DNA from: Escherichia coli
GTDB lineage: Bacteria > Pseudomonadota > Gammaproteobacteria > Enterobacterales > Enterobacteriaceae
NCBI RefSeq assembly: GCF_024700885.2
Contig: NZ_CP117016.1
DNA length: 64,000 nt
Direction: 5' to 3' (one strand)
The notes beneath the pieces were generated by a model. The model made no database searches, was not told the DNA's origin, and saw only the letters and a program-made list of their open reading frames with translations. How positions within the stretch are numbered: the first letter of the stretch is position 1; each line of letters opens with the position of its first letter. Of this stretch, positions 6,085 through 7,047 are shown one piece after another. The position numbers and the translations under genes are program-made.

Positions 6085-7047
6085 ATGACCGAATCAACAA
6101 CCTCCTCCCCGCATGATGCGGTATTTAAAACCTTTATGTTCTCGCCCGATACGGCGCGAGATTTTCTCGAAATACATCTGCCAGAGCCGCTGCGCAAGCT
6201 TTGCAACCTGCAAACCTTACGCCTGGAACCCACCAGCTTTATTGAAAAAAGTTTACGCGCTTACTACTCGGATGTTTTGTGGTCGGTGGAAACCAGCGAC
6301 GGTGACGGCTATATCTACTGCGTGATTGAACATCAAAGTTCTGCAGAAAAGAATATGGCTTTTCGACTAATGCGCTATGCCACTGCCGCCATGCAACGTC
6401 ACCTGGATAAAGGCTATGACAGAGTTCCGCTGGTGGTGCCATTGCTGTTTTATCATGGCGAAACCTCGCCCTACCCGTACTCACTCAACTGGCTGGATGA
6501 GTTTGACGATCCGCAACTTGCCCGGCAGTTGTACACCGAAGCTTTTCCGTTGGTGGATATCACCATCGTACCTGACGATGAGATCATGCAACATCGGCGT
6601 ATAGCTCTGCTGGAACTGATTCAAAAGCATATTCGCGACCGCGATTTAATCGGTATGGTCGACAGGATTACCACGCTTTTGGTTAGAGGCTTCACTAATG
6701 ACAGCCAGCTACAAACGCTGTTTAATTATCTGCTGCAATGCGGCGATACCTCCCGTTTCACCCGTTTTATTGAGGAGATTGCCGAACGTTCACCACTACA
6801 AAAGGAGAGATTAATGACTATTGCTGAACGGCTGCGGCAGGAAGGACATCAAATTGGCTGGCAGGAAGGTAAATTAGAAGGCTGGCAGGAGGGGAAATTG
6901 GAGGGTTTGCAGAAAGGCAAAGTAGAAGGTATGCATGAACAAGCCATTAAAATTGCCTTGCGCATGCTGGAACAGGGCATTGATCGTGACCTGGTGCTCG
7001 CAGCCACCCAGCTAAGCGAAGCCGATCTGGCAGCGAATAACCACTAA
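6085..7047 (+). CDS. rpnB: Rpn-family recombination-promoting nuclease (YhgA-like PD-(D/E)XK transposase-like protein)
   Basis: 320-aa ORF; N-terminal YhgA-like region ([15 protein letters not shown]); C-terminal GxQxGKxEG repeats; position between glpC and rhmA matches yfaD. Symbol from memory of synteny. Confidence 0.85.
6814..7047 (+). CDS. Candidate nested in-frame small protein (RpnS-like, 77 aa) translated from an internal start within rpnB
   Basis: Internal ATG at 6814 preceded 4 nt upstream by AAAGGAGAGA (6801..6810), a far stronger SD than most true starts in this window; same frame and stop as rpnB. Confidence 0.45.
6856..6927 (+). repeat. 24-bp tandem repeat x3 encoding GWQEGKLE / GWQEGKLE / GLQKGKVE
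   Basis: ggctggcaggaaggtaaattagaa followed by ggctggcaggaggggaaattggag and a degenerate third copy. Confidence 0.85.

Follow-up and report, generated by a model that had tools for sequence, protein, structure and literature searches.

The rpnE gene (yfaD) in the 64-kb stretch of Escherichia coli DNA analysed here (the window) carries in its 3´ part a Shine-Dalgarno sequence and an in-frame ATG that open a nested reading frame for a 77-aa protein, RpnE-S. We consider it likely that this frame, rpnE-S, is the published intragenic gene of rpnE, and that RpnE-S is made from the internal start and, by analogy with its paralogues, inhibits the full-length protein RpnE-L. The nested start of rpnE is already in the literature, the start having been mapped in 2019 and the product detected in 2023, and in this respect the present result is a re-discovery. 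What is added here is the description of the allele, the frequencies of the two layouts of the locus, evidence from other Escherichia species on the order in which these layouts arose, and a candidate internal promoter.

The rpnE gene and its internal start

The full-length coding sequence (6085..7047, plus strand) encodes a protein of 320 aa, in which a PD-(D/E)XK / Transposase_31 nuclease domain is followed by a variable C-terminal tail. E. coli has five chromosomal genes for Rpn (YhgA-like) PD-(D/E)XK nucleases, of which this locus is one. Pfam PF04754 (Transposase_31, YhgA-like) covers residues 8-209 (E=1.1e-87), and the protein scores 713.9 bits against the NCBIfam rpnE equivalog NF007418 (cutoff 583) and 172.5 bits against TIGR01784 (cutoff 52.1). 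In the NCBIfam search it falls below the cutoff of the RpnA model; with the RpnA profile it aligns collinearly, 1-256 to 1-256. The gene is preceded by glpB and glpC and followed by convergent yfaU and yfaV, in the order glpC - rpnE - yfaU. RefSeq uses the name rpnE at this locus, the copy in strain 1190 is 100% identical, and rpnE was matched in 5420 of 5426 complete E. coli genomes. An earlier note on this DNA had called the gene rpnB (yfcI). That name is wrong: synteny, the RefSeq name, NF007418 and the published assignment of RpnB to YfcI and of RpnE to YfaD (Kingston 2017; PMC5350276) identify an orthologue of rpnE and not of rpnB. The latter lies elsewhere, and tblastn found no second rpn gene anywhere in the 64-kb window.

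By inspection of the sequence, the internal start consists of the Shine-Dalgarno hexamer AAGGAG (6802..6807, plus strand), which coincides with codons K240-E241 of RpnE-L, a spacer of 6 nt, AGATTA (6808-6813), and an ATG (6814-6816). The ATG is codon 244 (Met244) and shares the frame of the ORF 6085..7047, (6814-6085) mod 3 being 0. Translation of 6814..7044 gives 77 aa, and the stop codon (7045-7047) is common to rpnE-L and the nested ORF; the nested coding sequence, rpnE-S, including its stop, spans 6814..7047 on the plus strand. The earlier note had proposed this internal start and its 77-aa product, and coordinates, frame and length were all correct; the Shine-Dalgarno string that it quoted was rightly placed but lacked one A and one G, the actual sequence being ctacAAAAGGAGAGattaATGact. 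Its reading of the locus as a gene within a gene that has a separately translated C-terminal small protein (RpnS) agrees with publications on K-12 rpnE. Two ORFs on the opposite strand, 6849..7007 and 6947..7075, were considered and dropped for want of support.

There are six occurrences of AAGGAG-N5-8-ATG in the 64-kb window where 1.45 would be expected, and 0 of 100 shuffles gave as many. The five other matches stand at the heads of ORFs of 153-419 aa with 4-27 open in-frame codons upstream; since these ORFs are long and so few open codons precede them, the five are apparently ordinary gene starts. The match at 6814 is the sole one in the window that lies deep within an ORF, 243 codons in.

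Start-site mapping in K-12 has placed retapamulin peaks at in-frame internal starts of all five rpn genes, and synonymous-site conservation is raised at the internal site of yfaD (Meydan 2019 preprint; 10.1101/520783). Signals with both Onc112 and retapamulin were later reported for all five genes, and chromosomal SPA tags led to the detection of both RpnE-S and RpnE-Ss, the latter encoded by ypaA next to rpnE (Zhong 2023; PMC10400941). Between K-12 rpnE and the window no difference is seen over the 97 nt that precede the ATG and the 17 nt that follow it, and three are seen across 6700-6871 as a whole. Because the sequence around the start is the same, the profiling and tagging done in K-12 bear on the very signals found here. 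The same 15 nt, AAGGAGAGATTAATG, recur directly after the rpnE stop codon in K-12 and in CH10982, where they head the free-standing ypaA, and in both genomes this second copy provides the only start signals of that gene.

The 77-aa protein is itself encoded as a separate gene, in exactly the form found in the window, downstream of a 299-aa rpnE on two ENA metagenome contigs (L021 and L022), and thus exists both nested and free-standing. On each contig (589-1734 in L021 and in L022) the rpnE gene is K-12-like, with a repeat-less nested protein of 56 aa, and the free-standing 77-aa protein mismatches the adjacent RpnE-L in repeat number and tail. Stand-alone calls of the 77-aa protein on two further sequences, L023 and L024, are artefacts of N-gaps in the scaffolds, and the true copies are those on L021 and L022.

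Conservation, predicted fold and repeats of the small protein

The aligned Met is kept in 12/12 distant homologues (47-54% identical), a set made up of E. coli yadD/rpnC and 11 plasmid-borne copies from Klebsiella, Enterobacter, Salmonella, Shigella, Yersinia, Erwinia, Vibrio and E. coli. All 12 have a GGAG, GAGGA or GGGGA core 7-9 nt upstream of this Met, and the core is kept though the residues encoded there vary (QKER, HGDA, HEDK, HEER, GGES). Among seven Escherichia orthologues the AAG GAG and the ATG are invariant, while neighbouring wobble sites (Pro237, Leu243, Thr245) vary. Third positions vary in 12 of the 48 codons 196-243 versus 101 of 214 elsewhere (Fisher p=0.0035, for a region picked post hoc). 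An in-frame internal start with its Shine-Dalgarno sequence at the boundary of conserved domain and variable tail, which defines the RpnS proteins, is thus found in the 12 distant homologues and the seven orthologues. In RpnA, the triple change K240R+E241D+M244L was used to abolish RpnA-S (PMC10400941), and the residue numbers of K240, E241 and M244 in the window protein equal those mutated there. Taken together with the K-12 experiments, the sequence signals make it very likely that the 77-aa protein is made from the internal start.

On several IncF-type plasmids a convergent gene of the DUF2913 family abuts or overlaps the 3´ end of rpn (L004:1421-1739, L005:1342-1742), and on other plasmids a recombinase or integrase gene adjoins it; a conserved neighbourhood is possible.

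An AlphaFold2 model built on a 12-sequence alignment has helices at residues 3-53, 58-65 and 69-73, with a mean pLDDT of 72, that is, moderate confidence. The best match of this model in the PDB by Foldseek is 7TH0, E. coli RpnA-S, with a probability of 1.00, a TM score of 0.74 per target and 33% identity, at a weak E value of 0.034; phmmer finds the same entry at E=0.001. A record of the exact 77-aa product assigns it to PF27070 (HTH_Rpn_C), a newer Pfam family. There is thus moderate support for a three-helix fold of RpnE-S like that of the RpnA-S crystal structure. Designed pentatricopeptide proteins ranked above 7TH0 among the sequence hits in the PDB and were set aside as spurious, being sums of many individually non-significant repeat matches.

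Two other likenesses arise from the composition of the long helix. Glycine occupies every fourth residue (G-x-x-x-G) along it, over 6856-6939, and FliH and Pfam Yae1_N are both known for glycine-repeat helices. Weak matches to models of the flagellar protein FliH (E about 1e-7) and to Yae1_N (E=0.025) were rejected as signs of functional homology, since they come from these repeats, and the resemblance is probably a convergent helix-packing composition.

The hypervariable part of helix 1 consists of five repeat units of 4 aa (12 nt) at 6871..6930 (plus strand), residues 20-39 of RpnE-S, which fall inside the predicted long helix (residues 3-53). Tandem Repeats Finder (TRF) describes the region as 3.1 copies of a period of 24. 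The five units are missing from K-12 RpnE-S, where they leave an alignment gap of 60 nt. Rpn repeats have been described as hypervariable, beginning 8-20 residues after the Met and lengthening helix 1, which is the dimer interface (PMC10400941). The repeats of the window begin at residue 20 of RpnE-S, within that range, and their number varies between strains. Similar variation is seen on IncK/IncI plasmids of E. coli, Salmonella and Shigella, where rpn genes are near-identical except for how many EGRM units follow the internal Met: six in L011 (383-1333), five in L013 (365-1303) and one in L015 (383-1273). In L011 and L015 the rpn stop codon is also where a hypothetical ORF of 81 aa begins (1333-1578 and 1273-1518, respectively).

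Single-copy and two-copy layouts of the locus

The window has a single gene at this locus, without ypaA, and this gene combines a ypaA-type tail with five repeat units more than its K-12 counterpart. For K-12 RpnE-S, gene and chromosomal site are the same, and Shine-Dalgarno sequence, spacer, ATG and the first 19 residues are identical, the start being Met244 in both. The proteins diverge beyond that point. K-12 rpnE encodes 299 aa and its RpnE-S 56 aa, without the inserted repeats and with the tail FEREIVLATTQLTDADIPNCH, whereas the corresponding lengths in the window are 320 and 77 aa; in the alignment, 46 of the 56 residues of K-12 RpnE-S are identical in the window protein. K-12 has a second copy, ypaA, downstream of rpnE, which the window lacks. 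The 61-aa YpaA of K-12 is the closer relative of the window protein, with 58 of 61 residues identical outside the repeats, the whole tail included, and it has the same Shine-Dalgarno sequence and ATG. In two-copy strains YpaA differs from the adjacent RpnE-L tail in repeat number and tail sequence, whereas in the window the long and short forms match exactly because the nested sequence is also the C-terminus of RpnE-L.

Of 5426 complete E. coli genomes, 3134 have the nested tail of K-12 type, so that about 58% are two-copy and about 42% single-copy; in a sample of 60 evenly spaced genomes, 26 were single-copy, 33 two-copy and one of another kind. Single-copy alleles measure 321, 285 or 261 nt over the query 6780-7100, in steps of 12 nt, and the corresponding small proteins have 77, 65 and 57 aa. 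Among them the 261-nt form is the most frequent, and the form found in the window is rare, with 24 records at least 99% identical.

Five loci came from a DNA-pattern scan in which each species was represented by a single genome. In E. albertii, E. whittamii and two further Escherichia species the locus is single-copy, with a ypaA-type tail directly before a hairpin and yfaU. Of the two layouts, the single-copy one is therefore probably ancestral, and that with two copies probably arose within E. coli. A secondary fusion of rpnE and ypaA, an event mentioned by Zhong (PMC10400941), was first considered as the origin of the window allele. In view of the four single-copy Escherichia species, an ancestral origin is at least as likely; for the window strain in particular, a secondary re-fusion is also possible.

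Two of the loci show further peculiarities. One sequence, labelled E. coli SCPM-O-B-8794 and taken as the representative of a separate species (L017:1406-2188; the stretch ends inside the gene), has a single-copy rpnE with a mosaic tail of K-12-nested and ypaA type, which suggests recombination between tail variants. In E. whittamii Sa2BVA5 (L018:7313-8251) a nonsense codon at position 185 of rpnE (HIR*RDL) truncates RpnE-L, and the internal Shine-Dalgarno sequence, the ATG and the 77-aa nested ORF are intact downstream of it, in this one genome. The nested ORF could encode an orphan small protein that has outlived its nuclease, or the mutation could be recent.

One tentative scenario, which we offer as a possibility rather than a preference, is that the window keeps the ancestral rpnE and that the two-gene layout of K-12 came about by insertion of a repeat-less RpnS cassette, consisting of a new tail together with a second Shine-Dalgarno sequence and head. 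The same 77-aa protein would then be the matched partner of RpnE-L here and an unmatched one in strains of the L021 type, and a matched, single-copy RpnE might be active where that of K-12 seemed inert. If true, the insertion would have changed both the tail of RpnE-L and its nested partner and made ypaA a non-cognate, free-standing orphan, so that nature would have performed an experiment in partner swapping with one and the same protein in matched and unmatched settings. The two layouts of rpnE are in any case ready-made allele pairs for relating repeat number and tail to RpnL-RpnS specificity and to RpnE toxicity.

The comparison also has practical value for annotation, as RefSeq treats ypaA as a fragment, omits the nested product and calls rpnE a transposase. 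The product name given to rpnE is 'ISNCY family transposase', and rpn genes have been argued not to encode conventional transposases (PMC10400941). K-12 ypaA (L001:2401-2598) is an incomplete pseudogene in some records and a 'Rpn/YhgA-type helix-turn-helix domain-containing protein' in others.

Proposed role of RpnE-S and putative signals for its expression

In the model that we favour, the 320-aa RpnE-L would be translated from the primary ATG (6085), and a second product of 77 aa, the same in sequence as the tail of RpnE-L, from the internal Shine-Dalgarno sequence and ATG (6802-6816). Internal initiation would most likely take place on a shorter transcript from a promoter within the gene. 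Three helices are predicted for the small protein, the first of them long and bearing the 4-aa repeats, in which every fourth residue is glycine. RpnE-S would, on the analogy of RpnA, RpnB, RpnC and RpnP2, bind through helix 1 to the segment of RpnE-L that has the same sequence and hold the nuclease in an inactive state, and the number of repeats would set which partners pair.

The analogy is with paralogues about 47-54% identical to RpnE. RpnA-S, RpnB-S, RpnC-S and RpnP2-S come from genes that share the architecture described here, namely a PF04754 nuclease, a Shine-Dalgarno sequence and ATG at the domain boundary, and a helical tail with 4-aa repeats. The start of RpnA-S is positionally homologous to that in the window (K240/E241/M244 of RpnA), and its structure, 7TH0, is the fold match. 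Toxicity and cognate-specific inhibition have been measured in these paralogues: antitoxin activity is established for RpnA, RpnB, RpnC and the plasmid-borne RpnP2, and phage defence for RpnP2 only, while for RpnE the same study covers expression alone, of RpnE-S and YpaA (PMC10400941). The earlier note had cited an antitoxin-like function and a part in phage defence for this gene; these functions were measured in the paralogues named and carried over to rpnE. As they were shown in other paralogues, the toxin-antitoxin label that rpnE might bear is one given by homology. On that footing, inhibition of RpnE-L by RpnE-S seems on balance probable to us, and toxicity of RpnE-L and a part in phage defence are possible by the same analogy. 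PADLOC v2 has no matching Rpn model, and its only hit was a weak and irrelevant one of a 'putative invertase' to the tail (E=4.5e-5).

One objection concerns RpnE-L itself. On overexpression, K-12 RpnE was the sole paralogue without toxicity, SOS induction or recombination activity (PMC5350276); as it was inert in these assays, RpnE-L is not established as a toxin. It can be argued from this that the 77-aa protein is made but is no antitoxin, RpnE-L being a non-toxic or decayed paralogue and the helix-turn-helix-like small protein acting alone, as a DNA-binding regulator or in cross-talk with other Rpn proteins. However, overexpression constructs of this kind also express the small protein, a point made by Zhong (PMC10400941), and the co-expressed RpnE-S could have masked an effect of RpnE-L in all three assays. 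Decay of the nuclease is also at odds with its active site: window RpnE has the residues listed as catalytic for RpnA (PMC5350276), D11, D63, E82, Q84 and R94, under the same numbers, together with the PDDEI motif, and they are intact in the other full-length homologues compared. An independent role of the small protein would fit the relation of the RpnS fold to helix-turn-helix domains, as indicated by the Pfam family HTH_Rpn_C and by the lower Foldseek hits, which are such domains. It would also fit the free-standing ypaA copies that adjoin an rpnE of differing repeat number and tail, and the E. whittamii gene in which the nested ORF and its Shine-Dalgarno sequence are intact despite a nonsense codon in rpnE-L. 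Yet four other paralogues are cognate toxin-antitoxin pairs (PMC10400941), and we regard a small protein acting without RpnE-L as unlikely. Inhibition of RpnE-L by RpnE-S is the reading that we retain.

A relaxed scan yielded a candidate sigma-70 promoter for rpnE-S, ATGACA-17 nt-TTTAAT, at 6698..6726 (plus strand), which matches the consensus at 10 of 12 positions. Both hexamers are invariant in seven Escherichia sequences, and the spacer varies at four sites. A strict scan for sigma-70 promoters across 5850-7150 gave no site. An internal transcription start site has been reported from dRNA-seq for all rpn genes (PMC10400941), and the candidate at 6698-6726 is consistent with such starts and may serve as a lead.

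That AAGGAG can arise as coding sequence, and that the strict scan found no strong consensus promoter upstream, might suggest that hexamer and ATG are merely Lys-Glu and Met codons of RpnE with no separate product in the window strain, but this is highly improbable, since in K-12 initiation has been mapped at the identical sequence and its product detected (10.1101/520783; PMC10400941), free-standing ypaA-type genes have no start signal other than this cassette, homologues keep an SD-like core where their amino acids differ, and AAG-GAG is invariant in seven Escherichia sequences in which nearby wobble positions vary.

No Rfam family matched 5500-7600 at E<=1, and the region is thus not accounted for by a known RNA element. 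The 3´ end of the locus is marked by a GC-rich, terminator-like hairpin at the convergent junction of rpnE and yfaU (7055..7081; 10 base pairs, six of them G-C). It directly follows the rpnE stop codon in the window and in four other Escherichia species, and therefore leaves no ypaA between rpnE and yfaU. The hairpin is probably a terminator shared by the two genes. Its position is conserved across the other Escherichia species, and compensating sequence differences in 7055-7081 are visible by eye.
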